A stretch of DNA of 64,000 bases, taken from positions 2,606 through 66,605 of the forward strand of contig DASRLF010000020.1 of assembly GCA_035648555.1 (NCBI GenBank), given 5' to 3'. The first letter of the stretch is position 1, and each line of letters opens with the position of its first letter. Source of the stretch: Pseudolabrys sp. (GTDB lineage Bacteria > Pseudomonadota > Alphaproteobacteria > Rhizobiales > Xanthobacteraceae). This document shows, piece by piece, positions 1,943 through 30,959 of the stretch. Both the position numbers and the translations under genes were made by a program. The notes below the pieces were generated by a model. It saw nothing but the letters and a program-made list of their open reading frames with translations, had not been told where the DNA came from and did not search any database.

Positions 1943-3067
1943 TTAACCGCCGCCGAATTCCTTGCGCACTTTCGCGGTATGGGCGCCGAGTGCCGGCACC
2001 GGGCCGTACGCCCGTGTCTTGCCGGCCCATTGCGGCGTCGGCGCCGGAATGCTCGCTGGCCCGCTCGGCGCATCGACGCTGATGCGCCGCAAGTGCGGAT
2101 GCTTGCTCAGCAAGGCGGAACCGTTGACGCGTGCAAAAGCGATATCGGCCGCTTCAAGTTTCTTCATCAGGGGTTCGGCGTCATGCGCGGCGAACACTTT
2201 GGCGACCGCGGCGTCGGTTTGCGCACGATGCTCGACGCGCTTGGTGACCGTGGCGAATTTCGGATCGTGCCCCAGCGAGACATCGCCCAGCACCTTGTCC
2301 GCCAATACGCGCCACTCGCGGTCGTTCTGGACGGCAATAAGGATGTCGGCGCCGTCGCGGGTCTGGTACGCGCGGTAGGGCGCGATGGTCGGATGAGCAA
2401 GGCCGACGCGCTTGAACGGATTGCCGTATTCTTCGTTCAGCAGCGGTATCGTCATCCATTCCGCCATGGCGTCGAACATGGAAATTGAAATCGCCGCGCC
2501 CTCGCCGGAGCGCCCGCGCGCGATCAACGCTTCCAGGATGGTTTCGTAGGCGCTCAAGCCGGCGGCGATATCGACGATCGAAACGCCGACGCGCGCCGGC
2601 GCTTCCGGCCCGCCGGTCACCGACGAGACGCCCGATTCCGCCTGGATCAGCAGGTCGTAGGCCTTGCGCTGCGCATAGGGACCGCTCTCGCCATAGCCGG
2701 AAATCGAGCAGCAGATCAGCCGCGGATAGTCCTTGCGCAAGCGCGCGAACGCGAAGCCGAGCTTGGCCAGCGCGCCCGGCTTAAGGTTTTGCACGAACAC
2801 ATCGGCCTTCGCCAGCATCGCTTCCAGCAGCGCCTTGTCCTCGTCGCGCACGAGGTCGAGCACCACCGATTCCTTGCCGCGATTGAGCCAGACGAAGTGC
2901 GCGCTCTCGCCGTGGACCACGTGATCGTAATGGCGGGAGAAATCGCCGTCCGGCCGCTCGACCTTGATGACGCGCGCGCCGGCGTCGGCGAGCCGGCAGG
3001 TGCACTGCGGCGCCGCCACGGCTTGCTCGACCGAGACGACCAGGAGGCCTGCGAGCGGCAGCGTCAT
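1943..3067 (-). CDS. Family III (CaiB/BaiF) CoA-transferase
   Basis: EQAVAAP, LADAGARVIKVERP, WLNRGKES, ADVFVQNLKPG, AYDLLIQAESG motifs. Confidence 0.93.
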   Translation of the reverse strand: MTLPLAGLLVVSVEQAVAAPQCTCRLADAGARVIKVERPDGDFSRHYDHVVHGESAHFVWLNRGKESVVLDLVRDEDKALLEAMLAKADVFVQNLKPGALAKLGFAFARLRKDYPRLICCSISGYGESGPYAQRKAYDLLIQAESGVSSVTGGPEAPARVGVSIVDIAAGLSAYETILEALIARGRSGEGAAISISMFDAMAEWMTIPLLNEEYGNPFKRVGLAHPTIAPYRAYQTRDGADILIAVQNDREWRVLADKVLGDVSLGHDPKFATVTKRVEHRAQTDAAVAKVFAAHDAEPLMKKLEAADIAFARVNGSALLSKHPHLRRISVDAPSGPASIPAPTPQWAGKTRAYGPVPALGAHTAKVRKEFGGG

Positions 3068-3068
3068 T

Positions 3069-4241
3069 TCAATACGAGCGCGGCAGACCGAGCACGTGCT
3101 CGGCCAGATAAGACAGGATCATGTTGGTCGAAATCGGCGCCACCTGGTAGAGCCGTGTCTCGCGGAATTTGCGCTCGACGTCGTATTCCTCGGCGAAACC
3201 GAAACCGCCGTGGGTCTGCACGCACATATCGGCGGCAAACCACGAGGCGTCGGCGGCCAGGAGCTTCGCCATATTGGCCTCCGGCCCGATGTCGGCGCCC
3301 GCTTCGTATTTGGCTGCGGCCTCGTGCACCATCAATTCGGCGGCGCGCATCTGCGCATAGGCGCGCGCGATCGGAAACTGCACGCCCTGGTTCTGCCCAA
3401 TCGGGCGGCCGAACAGCGCGCGCTCCTTGGCGTAAGCGGTCGCCTTGTTGATGAACCATTTGGCGTCGCCGATGCATTCGGCGGCGATCAAAATGCGTTC
3501 GGCGTTCATGCCGGAGAGAATGTAGCGGAAGCCCTGCCCCTCTTCGCCGATCAGATTTTCCGCCGGCACCCGCAAGTCGTCGAAGAACACCTCCGTGGTG
3601 GCGTGGTTCATCATGGTGCGGATCGGGTTGATGCTGATGCTGGTGCCTGCGGCGAGCCGCATGTCGACCAGAAAGACCGATAGACCGTCGGTGCGTTTCT
3701 TGACCTGCTCCTTCGGCGTGGTGCGCGCCAGCAGCAGCAGCAGGTCGGAATGTTCGGCGCGCGAGGTCCAGATTTTCTGGCCGTTGATGACGTAGTGGCC
3801 GTTGCCTTCCCTCCGCGCCGTAGTGCGCAAAGACAGAGTGTCGGTCCCCGACGTCGGCTCGGTGACGCCGAAGGCCTGCAAGCGCAATTCCCCACTGGCG
3901 ATTTTCGGAAGGTAGATTTGTTTTTGCTCGGGCAAACCGTGCCGCAGGATCGTGCCCATGGTGTACATCTGCGCGTGGCAGGCGGCGCCGTTGCAGCCGG
4001 AGGCCTGGATTTCCTCCAGGATCGCGCAAGCAGCGCCAATCGGCAGACCGCTGCCGCCGAATTCCTCCGGGATCAAGGCTGCGAGATAGCCGGCTTCGGT
4101 GAGCGCGCCGACGAATTCAGTCGGATAAGTTCTTTCGCGATCGAGCGCCCGCCAATATTCGCCGGGAAACTTGGCGCACAAAGCGCGCACCGACGCGCGG
4201 ATGTCGGCAAAGTCCTCATGCTGGGCGCTGCGCTTGCTCAT
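3069..4241 (-). CDS. Acyl-CoA dehydrogenase family protein
   Basis: FGVTEPTSGTD, NGQKIWTS, LFGRPIGQNQ, HGGFGFAEEYDVERKFRE motifs. Start 4241 overlaps the upstream stop (ATGA). Confidence 0.93.
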   Translation of the reverse strand: MSKRSAQHEDFADIRASVRALCAKFPGEYWRALDRERTYPTEFVGALTEAGYLAALIPEEFGGSGLPIGAACAILEEIQASGCNGAACHAQMYTMGTILRHGLPEQKQIYLPKIASGELRLQAFGVTEPTSGTDTLSLRTTARREGNGHYVINGQKIWTSRAEHSDLLLLLARTTPKEQVKKRTDGLSVFLVDMRLAAGTSISINPIRTMMNHATTEVFFDDLRVPAENLIGEEGQGFRYILSGMNAERILIAAECIGDAKWFINKATAYAKERALFGRPIGQNQGVQFPIARAYAQMRAAELMVHEAAAKYEAGADIGPEANMAKLLAADASWFAADMCVQTHGGFGFAEEYDVERKFRETRLYQVAPISTNMILSYLAEHVLGLPRSY

Positions 4242-5101
4242 GAGCCTTTTACTTCTGCCCGTCCATTGTCGATCACGACCGCGTCTCGTTCCACCGCCCA
4301 CGCGCGGAACCTTACCACGCCGGCATCGCGCCAAAACTCGGTGCGGATGGTTTCGCCCGGGAACGCCGGCGCCGAAAATCGGCCGGACATCGTGGTCAGC
4401 CGGGCCGGATCATAGCCGCAAACCGCCTTGAGCAGCGCGTGACCTGCGACCCCGAAGGTCGCCAGGCCGTGCAAAATCGGGCGCGGGAAGCCGGCGGCTT
4501 TGGCGAATTCCGGATCGGCATGCAGCGCATTGACGTCGCCGGACAGCCGGTAAATCAGCGCCATTTCCGGCCTTGTCGGCAGATCGCAGACGCCGTCCGG
4601 CGCGCGCGCCGGCAGCGCATGCGGGCGCGGCGTGTCGCGCTTCACCCCGCCGAAGCCACCATCGGCGCGGCAGAATGTAGTCTGCGTCAAGGTCGCGAGC
4701 AGGCGGCCGCTCGCTTTGTCGCTGATCGCGCGCTCGGAATAAACCAGCGCGCCTTTGCCTTCGCCTTTGTCGACAACGTCGAGGATGCGGGTGCGGCCGA
4801 TCACCGTACCTTGCGGCGCGACCGGTTCATGCAGCACCAAACCCTGCTCGCCATGCACGACGTGGGTCCAGGTGATGCCGAGATCGGGCTGGCGCAGCCA
4901 ATAGGCCGAGTAGCCTTGCACCAGCGCGTAAGTCGGTAGAATTTTCAGATTTTTTTCGTAGACGAAGGCAAGTTCATCGGCGTTGAGCGGATCCTGGCCA
5001 AGGCCCAGACCCAGCGCATAGAGCATGCAATCTTTGGGGCCGTAGCTGTGCTCGACCACCGGGATTTTCAGCGCCAGCAATTTTTCGCGATCGAGCGGCA
5101 T
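4238..5101 (-). CDS. MaoC/MFE-2-type double hot-dog (R)-enoyl-CoA hydratase
   Basis: LYALGLG, VVHGEQ, YRLSGDVNALHADP..A...GFPRPILHGL hydratase-2 motif. Confidence 0.9.
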   Translation of the reverse strand: MPLDREKLLALKIPVVEHSYGPKDCMLYALGLGLGQDPLNADELAFVYEKNLKILPTYALVQGYSAYWLRQPDLGITWTHVVHGEQGLVLHEPVAPQGTVIGRTRILDVVDKGEGKGALVYSERAISDKASGRLLATLTQTTFCRADGGFGGVKRDTPRPHALPARAPDGVCDLPTRPEMALIYRLSGDVNALHADPEFAKAAGFPRPILHGLATFGVAGHALLKAVCGYDPARLTTMSGRFSAPAFPGETIRTEFWRDAGVVRFRAWAVERDAVVIDNGRAEVKGS

Positions 5102-5108
5102 TCAAACG

Positions 5109-6212
5109 CTAACCCCAGACTTCCTTTGCGACCTCAACGATCATCTTCAGCTTGGCCCATTGCTCGTCCTCCGCCAAGACATTGCCCTCCTCGGTCGAGG
5201 CGAAGCCGCATTGCGGCGACAAACAAAGCTGATCAAGCGAGATATATTTCGCCGCCTCCTCGATGCGGCGCTTGAGATCGTCCTTGTTCTCCAGCCGGCC
5301 GGTCTTGGTGGTGACGAGCCCGAGCACGACATGGCGGTCCTTCGGCACCAGTTTAAGCGGCTCGAAGCCACCGGCACGCGCGCTGTCGTATTCCATGAAA
5401 TAGCCGTGCACCTTGATGCGGTTGAACAGGATCTCCTGCTCGGCCTCATAGCCGCCCGAGCCCATGAAGGTCGATTTATAATTGCCGCGGCACAGGTGCA
5501 TCGTAATGCGCATGTCGGCGGGAATATCCGACATAGCGGTGTTGATCAAATCGCCGTAGAGTTCGCCCAGTTTTTCCGGATCGTCGCCGCGCGCTTCCAT
5601 CTGCGCGCGGTATTTTTCATCGCACAACATGGCGATGAACACCTCGTCGAGTTGCAGATAACGGCAGCCGGCATCGGCGAAGGCGCGCACGGCTTTTTTA
5701 TACGCTTGGCCGAGATCGTCGAAGAACGCGTCGAGCTTGGGATAAATATTTCGGTCGATCGGTGTCGGCACCGGCCTGCCATAAGCCGCCGATGGCGATG
5801 GAATCGTAATCTTAGGCGTGCGCTGGGTGTGCGCGGCGACAAACTTGAAATGCTCGATCATCGGATGGCCGGAGAACCCGACTTTTCCCGCGACCTTGAG
5901 GCCTTCATTGCGCGTGGTGACTGCGGCGAAGGCGATGCCGGTGTCCATCACGTGCTTTTCGATGCCGTCGAGGCCCCAGAGAAAATCGAGGTGCCACCAG
6001 GACCGGCGGAATTCGCCGTCGGTGATCGATTGCAGACCGGCGTCTTCCTGGCGCTTGATGACGCGCTCGATCTCGCGATCTTCGACCGCCTTCAGTGCGC
6101 CGGTATCGATCTCACCTTTGGCGCGCTGCTCGCGCGCCTTTTTCAGCGCGGCTGGTCGCAGCAGGCTGCCGACATGGTCGGCGCGGAATGGCGGCTTTGT
6201 TCGCATCGTCAT
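5109..6212 (-). CDS. Cobalamin-independent methionine synthase II family protein (MetE catalytic barrel only, YxjH-like); array copy 5 of 5 in transcription order
   Basis: DHVGSLLR, TDGEFRR, Zn ligands H-L-C (MHLCRGN), E (YFMEYD) and C (SPQCGF); 367 aa, about half of full MetE. Confidence 0.9.
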   Translation of the reverse strand: MTMRTKPPFRADHVGSLLRPAALKKAREQRAKGEIDTGALKAVEDREIERVIKRQEDAGLQSITDGEFRRSWWHLDFLWGLDGIEKHVMDTGIAFAAVTTRNEGLKVAGKVGFSGHPMIEHFKFVAAHTQRTPKITIPSPSAAYGRPVPTPIDRNIYPKLDAFFDDLGQAYKKAVRAFADAGCRYLQLDEVFIAMLCDEKYRAQMEARGDDPEKLGELYGDLINTAMSDIPADMRITMHLCRGNYKSTFMGSGGYEAEQEILFNRIKVHGYFMEYDSARAGGFEPLKLVPKDRHVVLGLVTTKTGRLENKDDLKRRIEEAAKYISLDQLCLSPQCGFASTEEGNVLAEDEQWAKLKMIVEVAKEVWG

Positions 6213-7321
6213 CGGCTACCCCATACTTCTTGCGCGATTTCCACGATCATCTTGAGCTTCGCCCATTGCTCGTCCTCGGCCAGGATATTCCCTTCCTCGG
6301 TCGAGGCGAAGCCGCATTGCGGCGAAAGGCAAAGTTGGTCAAGCGGGACAAATTTCGTCGCCTGATCGATGCGGCGCTTGATGGCGTCCTTGGATTCCAG
6401 CCGGCCGCTTTTGCTGGTGACCAAACCAAGCACTACGGTCTTACCCTTGGGTACGAAACGCAGCGGCTCGAAACCGCCGGCGCGATCCGAGTCGTATTCC
6501 ATGAAATAGCCGTGCACGTTGATCGCATTGAACAGAATCTCCGCGACCGGCTCGTAGCCGCCAGAGGCCACGAAGGTAGACTGGAAATTTCCGCGGCACA
6601 GATGCATGGCGATGGCCATGTCGGCGGGAATGTCGGAGATCGCGGCGTTGATCAGCCGGGCATAGGCCGCGGGCAATTGGGCCGGATCCTCGCCGCGTTC
6701 GCTGACCTGCGCCCGCAGTTTGGGATCGCAAAGATAAGCGAGATTGACTTCATCGAATTGCAGATAGCGGCAGCCGGCATCGGCAAAACCACGCACCGCC
6801 TGAGCGTAGGTCCGGCCCAGATCAGAATAAAAGTCCTCCATGTCTGGATAAATCGCGCCCGGAATGGCGTCGCGGCCGTAGCGGAAATGCAACGACGACG
6901 GCGACGGGATCGTCATTTTCGGCGAAACGCGCGTGTGCGCCTTGACGAACTTGAAATGCTCCAGCATCGGATGACCGGAAAACGTGCCGAGCTCGCCGGT
7001 CACGCGCAGCATCATCGGCTTGGGGTTATTGCCCGCGAACTTGATCTTGCGTTCGCCGAGATAGGCTTCGACGCCATCAAGCGCGCCCAGAAAATCGTAA
7101 TTCCAGAAGGCGCGGCGAAATTCGCCGTCAGTGACGGCTTTTAGCCCAATGTCTTCTTGCTTCTTAATGACGGTGGCGATCTCGCGATCCTCGATCGCCT
7201 TGAGCTGATCGGCGGTGAGCTCGCCTTTTTCGCGCTGGGCGCGGGCTTCTTTCAGCGGCGCGGTCCGCAACAGGCTGCCGACATGATCGGCGCGGAAGGG
7301 AGGACTAAGACGTAATGTCAT
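6209..7321 (-). CDS. Cobalamin-independent methionine synthase II family protein; array copy 4 of 5
   Basis: Same motifs: MHLCRGNFQST, YFMEYD, SPQCGFASTEEGN; 370 aa. Confidence 0.9.
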   Translation of the reverse strand: MTLRLSPPFRADHVGSLLRTAPLKEARAQREKGELTADQLKAIEDREIATVIKKQEDIGLKAVTDGEFRRAFWNYDFLGALDGVEAYLGERKIKFAGNNPKPMMLRVTGELGTFSGHPMLEHFKFVKAHTRVSPKMTIPSPSSLHFRYGRDAIPGAIYPDMEDFYSDLGRTYAQAVRGFADAGCRYLQFDEVNLAYLCDPKLRAQVSERGEDPAQLPAAYARLINAAISDIPADMAIAMHLCRGNFQSTFVASGGYEPVAEILFNAINVHGYFMEYDSDRAGGFEPLRFVPKGKTVVLGLVTSKSGRLESKDAIKRRIDQATKFVPLDQLCLSPQCGFASTEEGNILAEDEQWAKLKMIVEIAQEVWGSR

Positions 7322-7330
7322 GCGCGGAGC

Positions 7331-8437
7331 TTAGCGGCCCCACACTTCTTCCGCCAACTCGACGATCATGCGCAGCTTGGCCCACTGCTCGTCCTCGGCC
7401 AGCACGTTGCCTTCCTCGGTCGAGGCGAAGCCGCACTGCGGCGAAAGGCACAGCTGCTCGAGCGCGACATATTTGGTGGCCTCCTCGATGCGGCGCTTGA
7501 TGTCGTCGCGCGGCTCCAGCCGGCCGCTTTTCGAGGTGACCAGGCCGAGGACCAGTTGCTTCTTGCCCTTGGGGAAAAAGCGCAGCGGCTCGAAGCCGCC
7601 GGCGCGGTCGCTGTCGTATTCCAGGAAATAGCCGTCGAAATTGGTGTTGCCGAGCAGATGCTCGGCGACGAATTCGTAGCCGCCCTGCGCGATCCAGGTG
7701 GAGCGGAAATTGCCGCGGCAGGAATGCATGGTGATCGCCATGTCGGCGGGCTTGCCGGCGAGCGCTTCATTGGTGACGCGCGCGTAGATCGCCGGCAGCG
7801 TGTCGGGGTCATCGCCGCGCGCCTTCGACTGCGCGCGCTCGTTCGGATCGCAGATCATTGACCAGGCGGTGTCGTCGAGCTGCAGGTAGCGGCAGCCGGC
7901 GTCGTAGAAGGCGCGGATCGCCTTGCGCCAGGCGGCGGCGACGTCGGCGAAGAAGGCGTCGTAGTCGGGATAGGCCTGCTTGCTCACCATCGCCCGGCCC
8001 TGCCGGAAATGGAACGTCGACGGCGCCGGGATCGTCATCTTCGGCGTGACGTTGCAGTGCGCCTTCAAGAACTTGAAATGCTCGATCATCGGATGGCCGG
8101 TGAAATCGACCTTGCCGGAGATCTTGATTGCCTCGGCTTTCGTCTCGACACCGTGAAATTTGATCGGCGGCGCGCTGATCATCTCGACGCCCTGCAGCCC
8201 CTTGAAGAAATCGAAGTGCCACCAGGAGCGGCGGAATTCGCCGTCGGTGGCGAGCTTCAGGCCCACCGCCGCCTGCTTCTTGATGATTTTTTCGATCTCG
8301 CGGTCTTCGACGTCTTTCAGCGCGCCGGCGTCGATCTCGCCCTTGGAAAATTTGGCGCGTGCGTCTTTCAGCGGAGCGGTGCGCAACAGGCTGCCGACCA
8401 TGTCGGCGCGGAACGGCGGCGCGGTGCGGGCGCTCAT
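7331..8437 (-). CDS. Cobalamin-independent methionine synthase II family protein; array copy 3 of 5
   Basis: Start ATG 8437 (MSARTAPPF) overlaps the upstream stop (ATGA); MHSCRGN, YFLEYD, SPQCGF. Confidence 0.9.
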   Translation of the reverse strand: MSARTAPPFRADMVGSLLRTAPLKDARAKFSKGEIDAGALKDVEDREIEKIIKKQAAVGLKLATDGEFRRSWWHFDFFKGLQGVEMISAPPIKFHGVETKAEAIKISGKVDFTGHPMIEHFKFLKAHCNVTPKMTIPAPSTFHFRQGRAMVSKQAYPDYDAFFADVAAAWRKAIRAFYDAGCRYLQLDDTAWSMICDPNERAQSKARGDDPDTLPAIYARVTNEALAGKPADMAITMHSCRGNFRSTWIAQGGYEFVAEHLLGNTNFDGYFLEYDSDRAGGFEPLRFFPKGKKQLVLGLVTSKSGRLEPRDDIKRRIEEATKYVALEQLCLSPQCGFASTEEGNVLAEDEQWAKLRMIVELAEEVWGR

Positions 8438-9540
8438 TTGCCCCACACCTCTTCTGCCAGTTCCACGATCATGCGCAGCTTGGCCCACTGCTCGTCCTCG
8501 GCCAGCACGTTGCCTTCCTCGGTCGAGGCGAAGCCGCATTGCGGCGACAAGCACAGCTGATCGAGCGCGACATATTTGCTGGCCTCGTCGATGCGGCGCT
8601 TGATGTCATCGCGCGGCTCCAACCGGCCCGACTTCGAAGTGACCAGGCCGAGCACCAGCTGCTTCTTGCCCTTGGGAAAATGACGCAGCGGCTCGAAGCC
8701 GCCGGCACGCTCGCTGTCGTATTCCAGGAAATAGCCGTCGAAATTGGTGTTGCCGAGCAGATGTTCGGCGACGAATTCATAGCCGCCCTGCGCGATCCAG
8801 GTGGAGCGGAAATTGCCGCGGCAGGAATGCATCGTAATCGCCATGTCGGCGGGCTTGCCTTCGAGCGCGGCATTGGTGACGCGTGCATAGATCGCCGGCA
8901 GCGTGTCGGGATTATCGCCGCGCGCCTTCGATTGCTCGCGCTCCTTGGGGTCGCAGATCATCGCCCAGGCGGTGTCGTCGAGCTGCAGGTAGCGGCAGCC
9001 GGCATCGTAGAAGGCGCGGATCGCCTTGCGCCAGGTGGCGCCGACATCCGCGAAGAAGGCGTCGTAGTCGGGGTAGGCCTCCTTGCTCACCATCGCCCGG
9101 CCCTGCCGGAAATGGAACGTGCTCGGCGCCGGAATGGTCATCTTGGGCGTGACGTTGCAATGCGCCTTCAGAAATTTGAAATGCTCGAGATGCGGATGGC
9201 CGGCGAAGTCGACCTTGCCGGTGATCTTGACCGCCTCGGCTTTTGTTTCGACGCCGTGGAATTTGATCGGCGGCGCACTGATCAGCTCGACGCCCTTGAG
9301 TCCCTTGAAGAAATCGAAATGCCACCAGGAACGGCGAAATTCGCCGTCGGTAGCGAGCTTCAGGCCCACCTCCGCCTGCTTCTTGACGATCTTCTCGATC
9401 TCGCGGTCTTCGACTTCGCGCAGCGCGTCGGCGGGAATTGCGCCTTTGGCAAACTTGGCGCGCGCCTCTTTCAGCGCAGCGGGGCGCAGCAGGCTGCCGA
9501 CGTGATCGGCGCGGAACGGCGCGGTCGTCCGCGCGCTCAT
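8434..9540 (-). CDS. Cobalamin-independent methionine synthase II family protein; array copy 2 of 5
   Basis: Start ATG 9540 (MSARTTAPF), ATGA overlap; about 90% identical to copy 3 by hand count. Confidence 0.9.
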   Translation of the reverse strand: MSARTTAPFRADHVGSLLRPAALKEARAKFAKGAIPADALREVEDREIEKIVKKQAEVGLKLATDGEFRRSWWHFDFFKGLKGVELISAPPIKFHGVETKAEAVKITGKVDFAGHPHLEHFKFLKAHCNVTPKMTIPAPSTFHFRQGRAMVSKEAYPDYDAFFADVGATWRKAIRAFYDAGCRYLQLDDTAWAMICDPKEREQSKARGDNPDTLPAIYARVTNAALEGKPADMAITMHSCRGNFRSTWIAQGGYEFVAEHLLGNTNFDGYFLEYDSERAGGFEPLRHFPKGKKQLVLGLVTSKSGRLEPRDDIKRRIDEASKYVALDQLCLSPQCGFASTEEGNVLAEDEQWAKLRMIVELAEEVWGK

Positions 9541-10646
9541 TTGCCCCAGACCTCTTGCGAAAGATCCACGATCATCTTCAGCTTGGCCCATTGCTCGTCC
9601 TCGGCCAGCACGTTGCCCTCTTCGGTCGAGGCAAAGCCGCATTGCGGCGAAAGACAAAGCTGATCGAGCGCGACATATTTAGTCGCCTCCTCGATGCGCT
9701 TCTTGATGTCTTCGCGCGGCTCCAGCCGGCCGGATTTCGAGGTGACGAGACCCAGCACAACGATCTTGTTGCCTTTCGGGACGAAGCGCAGCGGCTCGAA
9801 GCCGCCGGCGCGGTCGCTGTCATATTCCAGGAAGTAGCCATCGTAATTGCACTTGGCGAGCAGGCTCTCGGCCACCGGCTCGTAGCCGCCGGACGAAATA
9901 AAGGTGGAGCGGAAATTGCCCCGGCAAACATGGGTCGTGATGGTCATATCGGCGGGCTTGGCCTCCAGCGCCTTGTTGATGCAGCGGGTATAGCTATCCT
10001 GCAGATGATCGACATCGAGGCCGCGCTCGCGCGCCTTCTTCAACTCGGCCTCCGAGCAGAGATAGGCCCAGGCGGTGTCATCCCATTGCAGGTAGCGGCA
10101 GCCAGCGGCGTAGAACGCCTTAATCGCCGACTGATAGGCCATGGCGAGATCGTCGAAGATGGCGTCTCGGCTCGGATAGAACTCTTTGCTCACCGCGCCG
10201 GGTTCGAGCCGGAAATGCATCACGCTCGGCGCCGGAATGGTCATCTTCGGCATGACCTTGGTGTGCGCCTTCAGGAACCTGAAGTGCTCCAGCATCGGAT
10301 GATTGGAGAAGCCGATCTTGCCTTTGACGCGGATGCTGAGCGGCTTGGTCTGCACGCCCTGAAACTGGATGCCGTGGTCGAGCTCATAAATCTCGACGCC
10401 ATCGAGCATGCCGAAGAAATCAAAATGCCACCATGAGCGGCGGAATTCGCCGTCGGTGGCGAGCTTGAGCCCGATGTCTTCCTGTTTCTTGATGATCTTC
10501 TCGATCTCGCGATCCTCGACCTCTTTGAGCTGGGCCGGGCTAATTGCGCTCTTCTCGCGTTGCGCGCGCGCCTGCTTGACCGGCGCGGTGCGCAGGATGC
10601 TGCCGACATGGTCGGCGCGGAAAGGCGGCTTGGTTCGCTGCGTCAT
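9537..10646 (-). CDS. Cobalamin-independent methionine synthase II family protein; array copy 1 of 5
   Basis: THVCRGNFRST, YFLEYD, SPQCGF; GGAGG RBS upstream of ATG 10646. Confidence 0.9.
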   Translation of the reverse strand: MTQRTKPPFRADHVGSILRTAPVKQARAQREKSAISPAQLKEVEDREIEKIIKKQEDIGLKLATDGEFRRSWWHFDFFGMLDGVEIYELDHGIQFQGVQTKPLSIRVKGKIGFSNHPMLEHFRFLKAHTKVMPKMTIPAPSVMHFRLEPGAVSKEFYPSRDAIFDDLAMAYQSAIKAFYAAGCRYLQWDDTAWAYLCSEAELKKARERGLDVDHLQDSYTRCINKALEAKPADMTITTHVCRGNFRSTFISSGGYEPVAESLLAKCNYDGYFLEYDSDRAGGFEPLRFVPKGNKIVVLGLVTSKSGRLEPREDIKKRIEEATKYVALDQLCLSPQCGFASTEEGNVLAEDEQWAKLKMIVDLSQEVWGK

Positions 10647-10690: not shown

Positions 10691-11545
10691 TTATTTAATG
10701 TGAGCCATAGCACGGCCCGGCTGCGGCGTGCCATGCGCCGCTTCGCATGCGTAGCGTGCAGTTTCGATGGTGCCCCCGAATGAAAAATAATGCGGCGCGG
10801 CATCGCCCAGATCGCCAGCGGCCACAAGCGCCTCAAGGATGCGGTCCGGCCCGACATGGCCAATCAGGCCGGCGGCCGCGCCCGACATCAGGCCGCGCAG
10901 CGAAGCGGCAACGCCGCAACGCTGGGCGTAACGGAACAGCGCCGGCACGCTGGTCGGTCCAGCCATACCGACTTTCACCGGCTGATTGATGCCGCAGGTG
11001 CGCAACTGCCGGAGCCAGGCGAGGATACGCTCGGGCGAAAAGGAAAATTGGCTGACGATATGTACGCCAAGTCCTTGCGCGGTGGCGGCGGCGATCTTTT
11101 CATCAAGCGCCGCTTCAAGCCGGCCGGCCGGAATGCGCGGGTGGCCTTCCGGATAGGCGCCGATGCCGATCTCTTCAATGCCGGCTTCGCGCAATTTGCC
11201 TTTCTGAATCACCGCCAGCGCGTCTGGATAAGGCCCCGCGGCGTCGACATCGCCACCGACCACGAGAATACGGCGGATGTCCGCTTCGCCACGCAGGCTG
11301 GCCAGCAGGTTTTGCAAGTCGGCGGCCGCGCCAATTCGGCGCGCCGCGATATGAACGACCGGTTCCAAGCCGGACTTACGCAGCAAAGCCGCCGCCGCGA
11401 TCAGCTCAGGCGGCTCGATCGTCGGCACCGCCGAAAAATAGACCGGCGTTCCGCCCGGCAGCAGGTCCGCCAACGCCGCAATCTCGGCCGCGCCGGGACG
11501 CGTGGCCTCAAGCGAAAACCGCCGCGCGAAGGCGTCCGGGCTCAT
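10691..11545 (-). CDS. metF: Methylenetetrahydrofolate reductase-like flavoprotein (atypical alphaproteobacterial MetF family)
   Basis: FSLEAT, PVVHIAARR, LVVGGD, GAYPEGHP, VSQFSF, GMAGP, RCGV, YFSFGG match the MTHFR barrel motifs in order. Confidence 0.8.
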   Translation of the reverse strand: MSPDAFARRFSLEATRPGAAEIAALADLLPGGTPVYFSAVPTIEPPELIAAAALLRKSGLEPVVHIAARRIGAAADLQNLLASLRGEADIRRILVVGGDVDAAGPYPDALAVIQKGKLREAGIEEIGIGAYPEGHPRIPAGRLEAALDEKIAAATAQGLGVHIVSQFSFSPERILAWLRQLRTCGINQPVKVGMAGPTSVPALFRYAQRCGVAASLRGLMSGAAAGLIGHVGPDRILEALVAAGDLGDAAPHYFSFGGTIETARYACEAAHGTPQPGRAMAHIK

Positions 11546-11549
11546 TGCG

Positions 11550-12959
11550 CTATTCGCGCCGGTGCGAGATCACGAAAGATTCGTCGTAGAACCAAAGACC
11601 GCCCTGCTGCTGCAGCACGTCGCGCGTCGCCTCGATGTAGCGGCGGTCGCTGTTGACGTCGGACAGGCGGTCGTCCTCGATTTGCGCCACGTAGATCGCG
11701 GCGTTCCAGGCCGCCAGCAGCGTCGAGGTGCCGATCGATGAGGAAATTTCCGATGGCAGCGTGTGCATCTCGTAGCGGAACAGCGAGCGCTGGTCGGAAT
11801 AGGCGTTGAAATTGAGATCGCGGCCGGCAGGCCCCAGTTCGTGTTTCACCGCCTTGAGTAGATCGTGGCGGCTATGCGCGAAGGGATTATCCTCGGGCCA
11901 AACTTTGTGGATGATTTCCATGCCGGGGTCACGCCCGTAGGAATGGATCGCGATCATACGGCCGCCGGGCCCGAGCGCGCGAGCGAGCGGCGCCAGCACG
12001 CGCTTGGCCTTGAAGTCGATCGAGGCGCGCGCGCGATAAGGCTGCGACGCGATCACCAGATCGTAGTCGGCAACCGTGGCGCCCGGTTTCGGGATGACCT
12101 GATCGAGCAGAAACTTGTGATCGTTGCGGTAAAGCACCAGCACCACCGGCCGCTCGTAGACCGGATTGCCGCTCTTCGGCGACACGCGCGCTTTCCAGTT
12201 TTCACCAAGGAACGGCTCAAGCGCGGTGATCTGCTGCTCGAACGAATGCGCGGTGTCGCCCTCGAGCGCAACTTCCTTCCAGACCATGCTGGAGGCCGCC
12301 GTCACCGACTTGACGGACAGCCACGGCGCTTCCGCGTAAGCGAGGTTGGTAAGAACAATGACGCTCGAAGGATGCTCAATGAAACGGTCCGCCATTTTCT
12401 GCAGCGTGAGGCGGACATCTTCGAGGCTGATTTCCTTGGCCACGATGTAGAACGGCATGGTCGGGTAACGGTCGTGCATCGAGCGCATGACGCGCGCCAG
12501 CACGGTGCCGTCGCCAACGCCGGCGTCGAACACACGCACCGCCGGCGGTCGCGGGTGGATGCTGGCAAGTTCGAGACTGACGCGGTTGGCGACTTCCCAC
12601 TTCTCGCTGCAGGTATTCACGAACAGCAGATATTTCTGCCTGTTGTCGAAGAATCGGAAATTGCGTTGCGGGTCGTCGCCCGCTTGACCGGAGGCGACCG
12701 GCGGGGCCGGCGGCTTGACCATCGGCAAGACCGCGGGCGGCGCCGCATCGAACAATACGCGGCGGCGAGCCGGCGCTGCGTCGGCGTTGCGCGCCATGAA
12801 GCTACGGATGCGCTCGAGCGTGTCAGTGGTAATGCGGCCGCCATTGCGCAGGCGGTTGGCGAGCTTGCCGTCATTGACCGCGCGGCGGCCGAAAGTGGAT
12901 TCGGCCAGACCGCGCTGGCGGCAGAATTCGCCGATCTCCTGGAGGATTTGATCGTTCAT
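11550..12959 (-). CDS. Fusion of an N-terminal small HTH-like DNA-binding domain and a class I SAM-dependent methyltransferase-like domain
   Basis: Residues 1-56 (GLAESTFGRRAVNDGKLANRLRNGG) are Cro/XRE-like, followed by a Pro/Ala linker and the SAM-binding motif I VFDAGVGDG. Confidence 0.65.
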   Translation of the reverse strand: MNDQILQEIGEFCRQRGLAESTFGRRAVNDGKLANRLRNGGRITTDTLERIRSFMARNADAAPARRRVLFDAAPPAVLPMVKPPAPPVASGQAGDDPQRNFRFFDNRQKYLLFVNTCSEKWEVANRVSLELASIHPRPPAVRVFDAGVGDGTVLARVMRSMHDRYPTMPFYIVAKEISLEDVRLTLQKMADRFIEHPSSVIVLTNLAYAEAPWLSVKSVTAASSMVWKEVALEGDTAHSFEQQITALEPFLGENWKARVSPKSGNPVYERPVVLVLYRNDHKFLLDQVIPKPGATVADYDLVIASQPYRARASIDFKAKRVLAPLARALGPGGRMIAIHSYGRDPGMEIIHKVWPEDNPFAHSRHDLLKAVKHELGPAGRDLNFNAYSDQRSLFRYEMHTLPSEISSSIGTSTLLAAWNAAIYVAQIEDDRLSDVNSDRRYIEATRDVLQQQGGLWFYDESFVISHRRE

Positions 12960-13202: not shown

Positions 13203-13817
13203 TCAGATGTCGAAGAAAACCGTTTCGTCGCCGCCCTGGACGCGAATGTCGAAGCGGTAGGTGGCGGGGCCGCTGCCGGGCTGCTTGTGGGCAATAAGGG
13301 TGCCGCGGCGGTCTGCCGGCACTAGCGTCAGGATTTGATCGGCATCGTTCGCCTTCTCGTCGGAGAAATACAGCCGCGTATAGATCTGCCGCAGCATGCC
13401 GCGCGAGAAGATGCAGACCACGATATGCGGCGCCTGCGGCTTGCCGTTCGGCCCCTGCACCGCGCCGGGCTTGACGGTGTCGAACGAATAGATGCCGTCT
13501 TTGTCGGTGGCGGAACGGCCGAAGCCGGTAAACTTCGCATTCGGGCGCGGCTTCTCACCGCGCGCATGGGCATAACGGCCTTGGGCATCGGCCTGCCAGA
13601 TTTCGATCATGGCGTCGTTGATCGGCTTGCCGTCACCGTCGAGCACGCGGCCTTCGATGTGGATCTTGGTGCCGGTGGCGTCGGGTGTGATCAGATTGTC
13701 GCCGACGGTTTCCTTCCAGCTATAGTGGCCGTTCGGATCCCATTGGCAGCGGCCATCAGGCGTCAGCCCATAGGCGAAGAACGGCCCAACCGTCTGTGAG
13801 GGCGTGATTTCGGACAT
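13203..13817 (-). CDS. pcaG: Protocatechuate 3,4-dioxygenase alpha subunit
   Basis: ITPSQTVGPFF, IEIWQADAQG, QAPHI..FSRG, YRFDIRVQG..ETVFFDI. Confidence 0.96.
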   Translation of the reverse strand: MSEITPSQTVGPFFAYGLTPDGRCQWDPNGHYSWKETVGDNLITPDATGTKIHIEGRVLDGDGKPINDAMIEIWQADAQGRYAHARGEKPRPNAKFTGFGRSATDKDGIYSFDTVKPGAVQGPNGKPQAPHIVVCIFSRGMLRQIYTRLYFSDEKANDADQILTLVPADRRGTLIAHKQPGSGPATYRFDIRVQGGDETVFFDI

Positions 13818-14524
13818 TAGTGTTTATCCGTGTCTAGCGGCGTCGCCTCGCGCCCGCGCAACACGATGTTCCAGCGGAAGCAGAGCGCCCAGTCGGGAAT
13901 GGTGTTCTCCAGATCGAAGTTGGAGACCATGCGCTGGCGCGCTTTCTCGTCGGTCACCGAATTGAAGATCGGATCGAACGGAAACAGATAATCGCCGGGG
14001 AAATACATCTGGGTGACGAGGCGCGTGAGGAACGACTGGCCGAAGACCGAGAAATGGATGTGGTTCGGCCGCCAAGCATTGTGATGATTGCCCCACGGAT
14101 AGGCGCCGGGCTTCACGGTGATGAATTTGTAGTAGCCGTTCATGTCCGTGATGGTGCGGCCCGCGCCGGTGAAATTCGGATCGAGCGGCGCCGGATGCTG
14201 ATCGACGATGTGCACGTAGCGGCCGCAGGCATTAGCTTGCCAGATTTCCACCAGCGTCTCGGGGATCGGTCGCTTGTCCTCGTCCAGCACCTGGCCGTGC
14301 ACGATGATGCGCTCGCCCAAGGGCTCGCCTTTGTGCTGCTTGGTGAGGTCGTTGTCGGTGTCCTGGATCGCGTCGTGACCGAAGGCCGGACCTGAGAGCT
14401 CGGACAGCGTGTGCGGTACAATCACCAAAGGCTTGGACGGCGAGCGCTTCACCGTGCTGCGGTATTCCGGCGACAGATGCTTGGGAAAGGCGTCGAGGCT
14501 TTCCTTGGGATAGATCAGCGACAT
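13817..14524 (-). CDS. pcaH: Protocatechuate 3,4-dioxygenase beta subunit
   Basis: EIWQANACGRYVH, KPGAYPWGNHHNAWRPNHIHFS (Fe ligands Tyr/His). Confidence 0.97.
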   Translation of the reverse strand: MSLIYPKESLDAFPKHLSPEYRSTVKRSPSKPLVIVPHTLSELSGPAFGHDAIQDTDNDLTKQHKGEPLGERIIVHGQVLDEDKRPIPETLVEIWQANACGRYVHIVDQHPAPLDPNFTGAGRTITDMNGYYKFITVKPGAYPWGNHHNAWRPNHIHFSVFGQSFLTRLVTQMYFPGDYLFPFDPIFNSVTDEKARQRMVSNFDLENTIPDWALCFRWNIVLRGREATPLDTDKH

Positions 14525-14541
14525 TATCGTCGTCCTTGCTT

Positions 14542-15752
<1,211 letters not shown>

Positions 15753-15756
<4 letters not shown>

Positions 15757-17487: not shown

Positions 17488-17948
17488 TGGCAGCCATGCT
17501 GGGCAAAGAACCGATCTTCACAATTCACGCCGACTTGGCGGACATCATGAATTTCGGCCGCACGCCCTATGGCGAGCGCCGCGTTATCGGCATCCTCGGC
17601 GGCAGCGTGCGCGGACCCAAGTTGCAAGGGCGTATCCTGCCGGGCGGCTTCGACTGGCAAATCATACGCAATGACGGCGCGGCGGATATCAGCGCGCGCT
17701 ACACCATCGAGACGGATGCCGGCGCGCGCATCCTGGTGTCGAGCGACGGCTTGCGGCATGGTCCGCCCGACGTGATGGCGCGGCTGGCGCGGGGCGACAG
17801 TGTCGACCCCTCGCACTATTATTTCCGCACGGTGATGCGGTTTGAGACTGCCGATCCGGCGGTGGACTGGCTCAACCGGATTCTCGGATTGACGCGCGGA
17901 CAGCGCGAGGCCAACGCCGTGCGTCTCGATGTCTATGAGGTCAAATAA
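17487..17948 (+). CDS. DUF3237 family beta-barrel protein
   Basis: TPYGERRVI.I.GG.V.GPKLQG..LPGGFDWQ, ARYTIETD, YYFRTVMRFET pattern. Confidence 0.85.
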   Translation: MAAMLGKEPIFTIHADLADIMNFGRTPYGERRVIGILGGSVRGPKLQGRILPGGFDWQIIRNDGAADISARYTIETDAGARILVSSDGLRHGPPDVMARLARGDSVDPSHYYFRTVMRFETADPAVDWLNRILGLTRGQREANAVRLDVYEVK

Positions 17949-18742
17949 TGGCGGATCGGCTGGACGTAAAACTGCCTGCCTCGCTCGCCGCCGAGCGACA
18001 GGGCGCGGTGGCGATATTGCGCCTGGCGCGGCCCACCAAGCGCAACGCATTCAACGACGAGACCATTCTCGGCATCGAGACATTCTTCACGTCGCTGCCG
18101 GACGGCGTCGGCGCGGTGCTGCTGCACGGCGAGGGCGAGCATTTTTCCGCCGGGCTCGATTTGAGCGAGCTTAAGGAGCGCGACGTCGCGCAGGGCATCG
18201 CGCATTCCGGACTGTGGCATCGCGCCTTCGAGAAAATCCAGTTCGGCAAGGTGCCGGTGGTCGCCGTGCTGCATGGCGCGGTGGTCGGTGGCGGGCTGGA
18301 ATTGGCCGCCAGCGCGCACGTGCGCGTCGCCGAACGCTCGGCTTATTACGCGCTGCCGGAAGGCAGCCGCGGCATCTATGTCGGCGGCGGCGGCTCGGTG
18401 CGGTTGCCGCGGTTGATCGGCATCGCGCGCATGATGGACATGATGCTCACCGGCCGCACTTATTCCGCCGAGGAAGGTCACGCCATGGGGCTAACGACCT
18501 ATCTGGTCGAGCCGGGCCAGGGTTTTGCCAAAGGTCTCGAGCTGGCGACGGCAATCGCCGGCAATGCGCCGCTCACGAACTTTGCGGTGATGCAGGCGCT
18601 GCCGCGCATCGCCGAGATGGATCCGGCCAGCGGCTACGAAGTCGAGGCGCTGATGTCGGCGATCGCGCAGGCCGATCCCGAGGCAAAAGCGCGGCTGAAG
18701 GAATTTCTGGCAAAGCGCGCGCCAAAGGTGACGCGGCCTTGA
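17948..18742 (+). CDS. Enoyl-CoA hydratase/crotonase family (hydroxycinnamoyl-CoA pathway context)
   Basis: HFSAGLDL, GAVVGGGLELA, LPEGSRGIYVGGG; adjacent to fcs. Confidence 0.88.
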   Translation: MADRLDVKLPASLAAERQGAVAILRLARPTKRNAFNDETILGIETFFTSLPDGVGAVLLHGEGEHFSAGLDLSELKERDVAQGIAHSGLWHRAFEKIQFGKVPVVAVLHGAVVGGGLELAASAHVRVAERSAYYALPEGSRGIYVGGGGSVRLPRLIGIARMMDMMLTGRTYSAEEGHAMGLTTYLVEPGQGFAKGLELATAIAGNAPLTNFAVMQALPRIAEMDPASGYEVEALMSAIAQADPEAKARLKEFLAKRAPKVTRP

Positions 18743-20586: not shown

Positions 20587-20598
20587 GGACACGAGATC

Positions 20599-21360
20599 AT
20601 GGACATCAAGGGACAGGCGGCCATCGTCACCGGCGGCGCATCGGGATTAGGCGCGGCCACTGCGCGTGCGCTCGCCACCGCCGGCGCCAAGGTGGCGGTG
20701 TTCGATCTCAACGAGAAAGGCGCGGCCGACGTCGCCGCCGACATCAAGGGCATCGCGGTGGCCTGCGACGTCGCCAGCGCGCAGAGCGCCAAGGCCGCGA
20801 TCGAGACCGCCAGCGCCGCGCATGGGCCGGCGCGCATTCTGATCAATTGCGCCGGCGTCGGGCCGGCCAAGCGCATCGTCGGCCGCGACGGGCCGATGCC
20901 GCTGGAAGATTACGAGAAGGTCATCCGCGTCAACCTGATCGGCACCTTCAACATGATGCGGCTCGCCGCCGCCGCCATGGCGCCGCTCGACCTGTTGCCG
21001 GAGGGCGAGCGCGGCGTGATCGTTTCGACCGCCTCGGTCGCGGCCTTCGAAGGCCAGATCGGGCAATCCGCTTATTCGTCATCCAAGGGCGGCGTCGCCG
21101 CCTTGACGCTGCCGGCGGCGCGCGAGTTCGCGTCATTCGGCGTGCGCGTGCTGGCGATCGCGCCCGGAATCTTCGGCACGCCGATGCTGCGCGCGTTGTC
21201 GCAGGAGGTACAGGACTCGCTTGGCGCCGCGGTGCCGTTCCCCAAACGCCTAGGCGAGCCGAGCGAATTCGCCGCGCTGGCGATGCACTGCATCAACAAT
21301 ACCTATCTCAACGGCGAGGTCATCCGCCTCGACGGCGCGATACGCCTGGCGCCGCGTTAA
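20599..21360 (+). CDS. SDR family 3-hydroxyacyl-CoA dehydrogenase (type II, HSD17B10-like)
   Basis: [33 protein letters not shown]. Confidence 0.9.
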
Positions 21361-21776
21361 TGATCACAAACAGCCGCAAGGTTCGTATCGAATGGGGCGA
21401 CTGCGACCCCGCCGGCATTATTTTCTATCCGCGCTATTTCGAAATCTTCGACGCCTCGACCTCGGCGTTGTTCGAGCGCGCGATGGGCATGACCAAAATT
21501 CAATTGCTCAAGACCTTCAACTTCGCCGGCTATCCGCTGGCGAAAACGCGCGCGCGGTTCCTCAAGCCCACGCGTTTCGGCGACGACGTGACGGTGGATA
21601 CGTCCGTCAAATTCGGCCGCGCCAGTTTCGAGATCGAACACCGGCTCAGCCTGAACGGCGAGACTTGCGTCGAATGTTCGGAGACCCGCGTCTGGGTGGT
21701 GCGCGATCCGGCAACCGGCGGCATCAAGTCGCACGCGGTTCCGGCGGCGGTGCTGGCGAAGTTCAAAGCGCCCTAG
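21360..21776 (+). CDS. Acyl-CoA thioesterase (4-hydroxybenzoyl-CoA thioesterase family)
   Basis: IEWGDCDPAGIIFYPRYF motif; ATG overlaps the SDR stop (TAATG). Confidence 0.9.
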   Translation: MITNSRKVRIEWGDCDPAGIIFYPRYFEIFDASTSALFERAMGMTKIQLLKTFNFAGYPLAKTRARFLKPTRFGDDVTVDTSVKFGRASFEIEHRLSLNGETCVECSETRVWVVRDPATGGIKSHAVPAAVLAKFKAP

Positions 21777-29096: not shown

Positions 29097-29208
29097 CCGC
29101 GCCGGTCCGTTGTCAGCCCCCGCCTCTGTCGCGTAAAAGACCAGCAACAACACGGCGTCCGGGGGGACACCTTGCCAAGCTTCGCCGCGGACGCCTGAGG
29201 GCGACGCA

Positions 29209-30915: not shown

Positions 30916-30959
30916 AACTCTAGCCCAAAAGAACAATCGCCAGTCACGGAGGACAGTCT

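Follow-up and report, generated by a model that had tools for sequence, protein, structure and literature searches.

A tandem array of YxjG/YxjH-type, MetE-like zinc enzymes of four diverged types in a putative aromatic-catabolism operon of Pseudolabrys sp.

Five MetE-like genes in tandem

The window analysed here is a stretch of 64,000 nucleotides from a contig of Pseudolabrys sp. (DASRLF010000020.1), and its main subject is a tandem array of five genes, named A to E from upstream to downstream, whose products resemble a single barrel of the cobalamin-independent methionine synthase MetE. The genes are intact, belong to the YxjG/YxjH-type family and represent four old clades under purifying selection. 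Their zinc- and homocysteine-binding residues are invariant, the residues of the face that should receive the donor are clade-specific, and the genomic context is conserved. Judging from the sequences, the array could be a panel of zinc- and homocysteine-dependent methyltransferases with different donors, in which methyl groups would be passed to homocysteine, a different methoxylated aromatic acid would serve each of the types B, D and E as donor, and type A would be tied to the folate pool. This reading is put forward tentatively, since its chances are judged to be somewhat below even.

Copies A (9537-10646, 369 amino acids), B (8434-9540, 368 amino acids), C (7331-8437, 368 amino acids), D (6209-7321, 370 amino acids) and E (5109-6212, 367 amino acids) are consecutive and tightly packed on the minus strand, just as an earlier note, made from the sequence alone, had described them (five tandem frames of 367-370 amino acids). 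The start codon of B overlaps the stop codon of A by 4 bp, overlaps of the same length are found between B and C and between D and E, and a 9-bp gap separates C from D. The real start codons of B and C are the ATGs at 9540 and 8437, and the resulting proteins align with the others from residue 1. The longer versions of both (407 amino acids), with 39 additional upstream codons (8437-8554 and 9540-9657, minus strand), are an artefact of open reading frame (ORF) calling. These extensions resemble each other because in both cases the conserved 3' end of the preceding paralogue is read in another frame.

The source genome is a metagenome-assembled genome (MAG) of 2.99 Mb and 92% completeness, and the related loci stem largely from soil MAGs. 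The five-gene array is not an assembly artefact, since arrays of 2-5 copies recur in the congeners searched, including assemblies with contigs of 0.5-4 Mb. The survey of copy number in related genomes, which had been proposed in the earlier note, found the family in 24 of 24 congeners, mostly as tandem arrays of 2-5 genes.

Family membership and fold

Meth_synt_2 (PF01717) is the sole Pfam match in all five proteins, and Meth_synt_1 is absent. Among the NCBIfam models, NF005085 (PRK06520) gives 595.7, 586.2, 585.4, 531.4 and 511.4 bits for A, B, C, D and E, respectively, with a cut-off of 313 and matches that span model positions 2-368. The scores for NF004875 (PRK06233), the equivalog of the Bacillus subtilis YxjG type, are 370-414 bits and fall below the cut-off of 576. 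The MetE equivalog models are far from being reached (26-41 bits versus 930 for TIGR01371, and 31-47 bits versus 541 for NF003556). The same applies to NF003317, NF002119 and NF006589 (28-85 bits versus cut-offs of 258-406), which are taken here as single-barrel methionine synthase models as a group and not as models of individual Mes families.

Regarding the structure, the nearest solved one to copy A is PDB 1YPX, a structural-genomics entry from Listeria monocytogenes (phmmer E = 6.5e-130). The AlphaFold2 (AF2) model of copy A, with a mean predicted local distance difference test (pLDDT) value of 88.7, is a single (beta-alpha)8 barrel. Foldseek retrieved 1YPX as the top match of this model (E = 1.7e-31, target-normalised TM of 0.94), the C-terminal barrels of MetE in second place (E of about 1e-17, query-normalised TM of 0.72-0.77), and also 4AY7 and 4AY8. 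The five proteins are members of the YxjG/YxjH-type single-barrel MetE-like family (PRK06520; 1YPX). This family is already known, annotated and structurally solved, and the five proteins are neither MetE, nor of the MesA-D type, nor members of a known O-demethylase class. The earlier note regarded the missing N-terminal barrel as the folate-binding one, which is an oversimplification: in MetE, folate is bound between the barrels and its contacts are mostly with the C-terminal barrel, and MetE itself arose through duplication of such a barrel (Pejchal and Ludwig, PMC539065).

A constant zinc and homocysteine site and a variable donor face

Residues are numbered as in copy A, and invariance was judged in an alignment of 40 sequences. 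The zinc ligands H239-x-C241, E274 and C336 are invariant, which confirms the intact zinc sites that had been noticed in all copies. E274 would be the fourth ligand, considering that it is invariant and that strand beta-6 of the AF2 model ends there; around this residue, the HMMER pairwise alignment with MetE cannot be relied upon, and both the glutamate ligand and the equivalent of MetE Glu583 rest on low-identity alignments. Residues V14-G15-S16, E67 and D189 are invariant too, and they map by pairwise alignment to Ile409/Ser411, Glu462 and Asp577 of MetE, which hold the carboxylate and the amino group of homocysteine in the Thermotoga maritima structure (PMC539065). Since S16, E67 and D189 do not vary, all the copies probably share one thiol acceptor, and it would be the donor that differs.

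The C-terminal stretch S333-L356 (SPQCGFASTEEGN[V/I]LAEDEQWAKL), which carries the zinc ligand Cys336, is the same in the five copies except for one V/I position, and the motifs HxCRGN and SPQCGF are shared with the family, including 1YPX. In the last 40 codons, the proportion of synonymous differences (pS) is 0.40-0.63 and that of nonsynonymous differences (pN) is 0.04-0.10, which indicates that the C-terminus is held by selection. Gene conversion as the origin of this invariant end was ruled out, as synonymous divergence is as high there as elsewhere and the motif is also present in Listeria 1YPX.

The motifs and variable segments quoted in the earlier note were all reproduced in the alignment of the five copies. 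The segment after DGEFRR is SWWHFDFF in A, B and C, AFWNYDFL in D and SWWHLDFL in E; the one after IPxPS is VMHFRL in A, TFHFRQ in B and C, SLHFRY in D and AAYGRP in E. The LQxD(D/E) segment reads WDDT in A, LDDT in B and C, FDEV in D and LDEV in E, and the RGN-x-x-ST segment reads FRSTF, FRSTW, FQSTF and YKSTF in the same order. In the topology of the copy A model, the variable segments all come after the barrel strands beta-2 to beta-5, at their C-terminal ends, which is the catalytic face. Their counterparts by homology in MetE are the DMV loop, the loop with the pterin-stacking Trp539, and the residues past Asp577. The DMV loop (Asp-Met-Val) is replaced by S-W-W-H, or A-F-W-N in type D, the pterin-stacking Trp539 corresponds to F145, or to Y144-G145 in type E, and His672 is replaced by Lys304. 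The stretch around Glu583 presents Y/M at 195 and S/D at 198, so that the equivalent of this glutamate is Tyr or Met by ungapped alignment and Ser or Asp by HMMER alignment.

There are 29 positions that are fixed within clades and differ between them, and 16 of these fall in the beta-2 to beta-5 loops, which comprise 87 of the 369 residues (p = 1.3e-4, for a donor-face region picked post hoc from the secondary-structure topology of the model). The derived pocket of copy B is characterized by Y195M, S198D and P257F, and that of copy D by AFWN in the place of SWWH, DE-V-N-F after strand beta-4, and S198D. Copy E has the most derived pocket, with H144Y, F145G (the stacking aromatic is moved by one residue), F245Y, R246K, P257A and A259Q. 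The pocket residues of type A match those of the stand-alone type A genes of other Xanthobacteraceae, of the Bradyrhizobium copies and of 1YPX; type A keeps the ancestral pocket, and only the pockets of B, D and E are derived. The simplest reading would be that there are four donor pockets, one ancestral and three new, and one conserved thiol substrate, probably homocysteine. The proposal of a panel for different donors or acceptors would thus hold for the donors, whose face differs in a clade-specific way, but probably not for the acceptor, whose ligands are invariant.

Four old clades under purifying selection

In a family tree of 151 members from 80 loci, four clades were resolved: A, B, D and E comprise 69, 29, 21 and 29 rows, with support values of 98, 81, 100 and 99, respectively. 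Clade B joins the pair of sister clades D and E. Copies B and C fall together in one subclade of clade B with 6 rows, are 90% identical in amino acids and show a synonymous divergence (dS) of 0.33, a nonsynonymous divergence (dN) of 0.06 and a dN/dS of 0.19. Given this common clade, the identity and the dS, C is a lineage-specific extra copy of type B. The four distinct sequence types recognised in the earlier note are real, and they correspond to ancient orthologous clades, with arrays conserved across Xanthobacteraceae. The pairwise dN/dS among the five copies is 0.19-0.40, and all of them are under purifying selection. Simple redundancy, which the earlier note had doubted, is indeed unlikely given the old clades, the purifying selection and the enrichment of clade-specific positions on the donor face.

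Copies B and C diverge more from each other over roughly the first 130 codons (pS 0.30-0.44, with pN of 0.15 and 0.11 within the initial 70) than over the remainder (pS 0.12-0.34 and pN 0.01-0.07). This pattern is compatible with partial homogenisation or with a mosaic origin of the duplicate.

The composition of the arrays varies among genomes (A only, A-B, A-B-E, B-D-E and A-B-D-D-E). Type A occurs as a lone gene in many of them, and the neighbours of these stand-alone loci are housekeeping-like, being read from the sequence as pheST and a CysZ-like gene.

A probable type-4 MTHFR next to the array and LigM in congeners

The most specific lead to the function of the array, which is absent from the earlier note, is the combination of a methylenetetrahydrofolate reductase (MTHFR) neighbour, a link to LigM in congeners, and an aromatic context. 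The array occupies the middle of an operon of 11 closely spaced genes, in which a 469-amino-acid protein and the MTHFR precede A to E, and a MaoC-type hydratase, an acyl-CoA dehydrogenase (ACAD) and a CoA-transferase follow them.

The MTHFR gene (10691-11545, minus strand) is located 44 bp upstream of copy A and encodes an enzyme that is probably of type 4 (S6MTHFR-like). Its best PDB match is 7XG9, the MTHFR of Sphingobium SYK-6 (E = 1e-53, 186 bits), whereas ordinary MTHFRs reach E = 4e-7, and the scores against the Thermus and Escherichia coli enzymes are 33 and 21 bits, respectively. The type-4 signature residues Leu48-Pro49, Arg78 and Pro268-Phe269 correspond to Val40-Pro41, Arg70 and Ser-Phe; Pro49, Arg78 and Phe269 are thus the same, Val is a conservative replacement of Leu48, and Ser stands in the place of Pro268. 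Type-4 MTHFR oxidises 5-methyltetrahydrofolate (CH3-THF), hardly reacts with NADH and co-occurs with tetrahydrofolate (THF)-dependent demethylases, and the pair of S6MTHFR and demethylase has been tied to methionine supply (Yu et al. 2025, PMC11868366). By analogy, the MTHFR next to the array is expected to oxidise CH3-THF.

The type-4 MTHFR gene was found in 30 of 31 genus genomes. According to the coordinates, it directly adjoins a MetE-like family gene in at least 16 of them, and ligM lies between both in several others. In four congeners (G019, G043, G003 and G009), two of which have ligM adjoining, the MTHFR match contains one in-frame stop; these could be pseudogenes, assembly errors or alignments that extend past the end of the gene.

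In at least five congeners, a LigM orthologue is encoded on the opposite strand between the MTHFR gene and the array. It matches SYK-6 LigM with E = 9e-212, as well as PDB 5X1I and 5TL4 (vanillate/3-O-methylgallate O-demethylase). This gene is at 2502-4109 (minus strand) in locus L094, at 6677-8080 (minus strand) in L096 and at equivalent sites in L095, L097 and L098. A GntR/FCD regulator gene (8115-9095) comes next after ligM in L096. At locus L095 of genome G005, type A was not detected after ligM, where the first family gene best matches type B by tblastn.

On the other hand, the search of the whole source genome (92% complete) gave no VanA_C, LigM-type GCV_T or P450 match. A total of 17 of the 31 genus genomes, the source genome included, are without any GcvT-family match. 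A type-4 MTHFR whose genome shows no THF-dependent demethylase departs from the published pattern, according to which this enzyme is a companion of LigM, DesA, Dmt or CmuAB.

The 469-amino-acid protein is encoded by the first gene of the operon (11550-12959, minus strand). In it, a Pro/Ala linker joins a small helical domain at the N-terminus to a Rossmann-like part with the sequence DAGVGDG, and the protein gave no match in Pfam, NCBIfam or the PDB sequences. It has more than 8000 homologues, and every name among the matches listed is "hypothetical protein". The gene is single-copy and directly upstream of the MTHFR gene in 24 of 25 genus genomes (its own included), and it is a contig-end fragment in the remaining one; it is absent from 16 other genomes of the order. 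The full-length copies of the genus are 81-92% identical, and the protein is more conserved than its neighbours. The AF2 model, with a pLDDT of 54, gave no significant Foldseek match, with a few SAM methyltransferases among the noise. This protein could be an enzyme or a sensor. Homologues with about 63-72% identity are found within about 7 kb of family genes, some of them adjacent, in six loci of Bradyrhizobium and other Hyphomicrobiales (L070, L073, L085, L086, L088 and L089).

The aromatic-catabolism context

Downstream of the array, the operon continues with three minus-strand genes whose linkage is conserved. The gene of the MaoC-type (R)-specific enoyl-CoA hydratase (4238-5101; PF01575 and PF22622) begins 7 bp downstream of copy E and is linked to arrays in many loci, also outside Pseudolabrys. 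The ACAD gene (3069-4241; PF00441, PF02771 and PF02770) probably starts at the ATG at 4241, with a 4-bp overlap with the MaoC stop codon. The last gene of the operon encodes a family III CoA-transferase (1943-3067; PF02515, 335 bits).

Directly upstream of the operon there are genes for a pcaF-like thiolase and for protocatechuate 3,4-dioxygenase (pcaG and pcaH) at 13203-15756 on the minus strand, which were named from their translations alone, and CoA-transferase subunits are also encoded next to them. Further upstream, on the plus strand, Pfam matches identified an enoyl-CoA hydratase, an AMP-forming ligase, a short-chain dehydrogenase/reductase (SDR) and a thioesterase (17948-21776). This hydroxycinnamate-type set, which also includes a TRAP transporter, is presumably responsible for the shortening of hydroxycinnamate side chains, as in the Agrobacterium fabrum-type pathway. 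It is followed on the same strand by an IorAB-like 2-oxoacid:ferredoxin oxidoreductase pair, a benzoylformate-decarboxylase-like thiamine diphosphate (ThDP) enzyme and an Amidohydro_2 protein of the LigW-type decarboxylase family (25414-31976). The aromatic island ends before mutS at 32001.

The gene order pcaF-pcaH-pcaG, 469-amino-acid protein, MTHFR, array, (SDR), MaoC, ACAD and CoA-transferase recurs in about 25 loci. The B-D-E arrays found beyond Pseudolabrys retain the SDR, MaoC, ACAD and CoA-transferase genes, and they adjoin genes for a UbiD-family decarboxylase, a benzoylformate-decarboxylase-like ThDP enzyme, an aryl-type AMP ligase, an intradiol dioxygenase or a LivK-type binding protein. 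These linkages suggest that the cluster handles methyl groups from aromatic catabolism and that the MetE-like enzymes are a conserved part of it.

Inserted genes are also found within some arrays (at 12417-13694 in L020, 12342-13673 and 13781-14752 in L046, and 12426-15878 in L067). A LivK-type periplasmic binding protein is encoded between types B and D in some relatives, and the PDB sequence matches of this protein are generic HAAT-family proteins. A catechol/hydroxyquinol-type intradiol dioxygenase gene is also inserted between B and D in the loci of two relatives, and L067 contains an apparently frameshifted MetE-like gene of another subfamily.

Proposed homocysteine-linked demethylation and its alternatives

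If the array is a panel of methyltransferases for different donors, L-homocysteine would bind to the conserved zinc site, where its thiolate would be activated. The thiolate would then take the methyl group by SN2 attack on a donor placed in the adjoining pocket, producing methionine and the demethylated donor. Type A, which has the ancestral pocket and lies beside an MTHFR expected to oxidise CH3-THF, would probably be the link to the folate pool. Types B (with the duplicate C), D and E could strip methyl groups from vanillate, syringate, ferulate or dihydroferulate-like compounds, acting as cofactor-free O-demethylases whose protocatechuate-type products would be substrates of PcaHG. B, D and E travel with genes for CoA-dependent side-chain degradation, even where no MTHFR gene is nearby.

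Several points weigh against this proposal. We know of no enzyme in which a zinc-thiolate directly attacks an aryl methyl ether that is not activated, and the literature search found neither a functional characterization of the YxjG/YxjH-type family nor an O-demethylase with the MetE fold. Stoichiometric methyl transfer needs a route to regenerate homocysteine, and none is encoded in the operon. The hydroxycinnamate genes might serve only non-methoxylated substrates, in which case the pathway hole would not be strict. The Firmicute relatives are under the control of methionine T-boxes, and this, together with the lone type A loci, suggests that the ancestral role was plain methionine synthesis. 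Moreover, the number of MetE-like copies shows no clear anticorrelation with the presence of LigM or VanA in the genus (means of about 4.2 versus 4.6). All the genomes with 1-3 MetE-like copies have LigM or VanA, but such an anticorrelation is only suggestive.

The first alternative is that all the copies are cobalamin-independent methionine synthases that use CH3-THF and free THF from the methyl trap during growth on methoxylated aromatics. CH3-THF would come from LigM-type demethylation or from MetF, and any differences among the paralogues would be limited to kinetics, to the preference for folate glutamylation or to regulation. This is a rather unlikely explanation, although many features agree with it: the intact zinc and homocysteine sites, the aromatic residue retained at the position of Trp539 in A, B and D, the MTHFR gene beside type A, the insertion of CH3-THF-making LigM in the same cluster in at least five congeners, the methionine regulation of the Firmicute homologues, and the link of the S6MTHFR/demethylase pair to methionine supply (Yu et al., PMC11868366). 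Nevertheless, an MTHFR of the type that oxidises CH3-THF would compete with a consumer of this compound instead of feeding it, the folate contacts of MetE (DMV loop, Glu583 and His672) are not conserved, and a single donor hardly explains four clades with distinct fixed pockets. The association of B, D and E with CoA-dependent catabolic genes in loci without a nearby MTHFR gene is not accounted for either. Furthermore, housekeeping methionine synthesis does not require the array, as a canonical metH-metF pair is present on another contig of the source genome, and metE mutants of B. subtilis are auxotrophic despite having YxjG and YxjH.

The CoA-dependent genes lead to a second alternative, which is considered unlikely. 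The donors could be S- or N-methyl compounds, such as S-methylmethionine, dimethylsulfoniopropionate (DMSP) or methylthiopropionate-type acids, carnitine, butyrobetaine or other betaines, the skeleton of which would afterwards be degraded as a CoA ester by the CoA-transferase, the ACAD and the hydratase. B, D and E are linked most persistently to the CoA-transferase III, ACAD, MaoC and SDR genes, a set which resembles the logic of CaiB/CaiA/CaiD and DmdB/C/D. From a chemical point of view, zinc-thiolates are readily methylated by sulfonium and quaternary ammonium compounds (BHMT, MmuM). However, the wider context is consistently aromatic (pcaHG, LigM, UbiD, the intradiol dioxygenase, the benzoylformate-decarboxylase-like ThDP enzyme and the hydroxycinnamate set), and the window ORFs scanned showed no gene specific for betaines or DMSP.

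The array proteins could also be THF-dependent demethylases built on the MetE fold, where zinc would act as a Lewis acid on the leaving phenolate or another leaving group and N5 of THF would accept the methyl group. The CH3-THF formed would be oxidised by the co-transcribed type-4 MTHFR, and these proteins would replace LigM in the genomes that have no ligM. The distribution of the genes fits this idea: 17 of the 31 genus genomes have no GcvT-family match while the MTHFR is kept in 30 of the 31, the MetE-like family is kept in 24 of the 24 congeners checked, directly beside the MTHFR gene in at least 16, and the source genome has no detectable known O-demethylase. The activation of a leaving group by zinc has a precedent in MtaB-type methyltransferases. 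Type-4 MTHFRs, in turn, have been reported to be coupled to THF-dependent demethylases (PMC11868366). It is improbable all the same, as the residues that bind the amino and carboxylate groups of homocysteine are invariant in all clades, which would not be expected of enzymes without an amino-acid thiol, and just one aromatic residue is left of the folate site of MetE. A literature precedent was not found.

Returning to homocysteine-linked demethylation, a more specific version of it would be that the operon is a corrinoid-free and oxygen-independent O-demethylation system, in which the homocysteine/methionine couple works as a catalytic methyl carrier. Homocysteine, activated by zinc, would be methylated by B (with C), D and E, each of which would use another methoxylated aromatic acid. 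Such a system would explain the invariant homocysteine site, the presence of one ancestral and three derived pockets, an MTHFR with no THF-dependent demethylase, and the absence of the known O-demethylase classes, but as a whole it must be regarded as quite improbable.

Two further possibilities find little room. Non-methyl alkyl transfer, for instance the opening of epoxides by a thiol or the addition of a thiol to an activated CoA-ester intermediate, is suggested by the adjacent CoA-ester enzymes and by epoxyalkane:coenzyme M (CoM) transferase, which we take to be a single-barrel member of the MetE family. It is very improbable, given that the conserved ligands of an alpha-amino acid thiol are a poor fit to CoM, that the window ORFs scanned include no gene for an alkene monooxygenase or for the CoM pathway, and that the neighbours that handle one-carbon units (type-4 MTHFR, and LigM in congeners) point to methyl chemistry. 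The hetero-oligomers imagined in the earlier note, which would rebuild the face-to-face double barrel of MetE with some copies as non-catalytic lids, can be drawn from the translational coupling through 4-bp overlaps and from the origin of MetE by duplication of such a barrel (PMC539065), but they are scarcely credible considering that every copy keeps all the catalytic residues, that type A is a single gene in many genomes, and that the composition and copy number of the arrays vary.

Comparison with known systems

The YxjG/YxjH proteins (1YPX) share with the array the single barrel of about 370 amino acids, the motifs and the zinc and homocysteine ligands, and the pocket of type A is almost identical to that of 1YPX. 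However, the members from Firmicutes are single genes under methionine T-box or S-box control, whereas Pseudolabrys has four diverged types in tandem, with no riboswitch, in an aromatic operon with a type-4 MTHFR. The C-terminal barrel of MetE (EC 2.1.1.14) presents the same fold, the His/Cys/Glu/Cys zinc site and the Ser, Glu and Asp ligands of homocysteine, but the array proteins lack the N-terminal barrel, are about 18% identical to it and have the DMV loop, Glu583 and His672 replaced. Core-MetE and MesA-D are single-barrel MetE homologues that methylate homocysteine from a non-folate donor, for which they need methyl-corrinoid proteins or MesX (DUF1852) (Price et al. 2021, PMC7857596; Deobald et al. 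2020, PMC7005905). The array belongs to a different subfamily, and no B12-binding or DUF1852 domain was seen among the neighbouring genes scanned.

With the ligM-metF-ligH system of Sphingobium lignivorans SYK-6 (LigM/DesA with S6MTHFR), the operon has in common the location of a type-4 MTHFR gene by demethylation and protocatechuate cleavage genes. In SYK-6, LigM is a THF-dependent enzyme with the GcvT fold, while the source genome has no LigM and the partner of the MTHFR is a zinc enzyme with the MetE fold; moreover, there is no ligH in the window. The corrinoid O-demethylases of anaerobes (methyltransferase I, corrinoid protein and methyltransferase II) and MtaA/MT2 include TIM-barrel zinc methyltransferases of the UROD/MetE-like superfamily, and in them panels of substrate-specific paralogues feed one carrier. 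Neither the corrinoid protein nor the activating enzyme on which those systems depend was seen here, where the methyl acceptor or carrier would be homocysteine.

Aryl O-demethylation is a rate-limiting step in the bacterial use of lignin-derived aromatics, and Pseudolabrys and other Xanthobacteraceae are common in soil. To our knowledge, only three classes of aerobic aryl O-demethylases exist, namely Rieske enzymes, GcvT-type THF-dependent enzymes and P450s. The array proteins have the MetE fold, which excludes them from the Rieske (VanA), GcvT-type (LigM/DesA) and P450 (GcoA/PbdA) groups. What is new here is the presence in tandem of four anciently diverged donor-pocket types, the ancestral one being paired with a putatively CH3-THF-oxidising MTHFR and a conserved 469-amino-acid protein, and their placement in lignin-aromatic catabolism with no detectable known demethylase. 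If the arrays encode demethylases, these would constitute a fourth, cofactor-light class of use in lignin valorisation, would change the annotation of methoxy-group carbon flow in soil and would provide the first substrates for the large YxjG/YxjH family. If they encode instead donor-specialised methionine synthases tied to a CH3-THF-oxidising MTHFR, the proposed one-carbon metabolism of "demethylase plus type-4 MTHFR" would be refined.

Other features of the window and the genome

At the Rfam gathering thresholds, only a tRNA was found in the window, with no methionine or B12 riboswitch. The promoter scan gave no promoter-like site, and the terminator-like matches fall inside coding sequence. 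The gene at 52544-53641 (minus strand) encodes a member of the IF-2B family, which in all probability is the methionine salvage enzyme methylthioribose-1-phosphate isomerase. It lies about 42 kb from the array and has no obvious link to it.

Elsewhere in the genome there are six further single-barrel MetE-like genes of other subfamilies (343-401 amino acids), with the HxC and C motifs visible. They are located at 2976-4058 on contig C8, 7769-8203 on C17, 40241-41365 on C5, 25903-26346 on C42, 6102-6626 on C11 and 15557-16642 on C59. The single-barrel MetE-like genes thus amount to eleven in a 3-Mb genome that also holds metH and metF.

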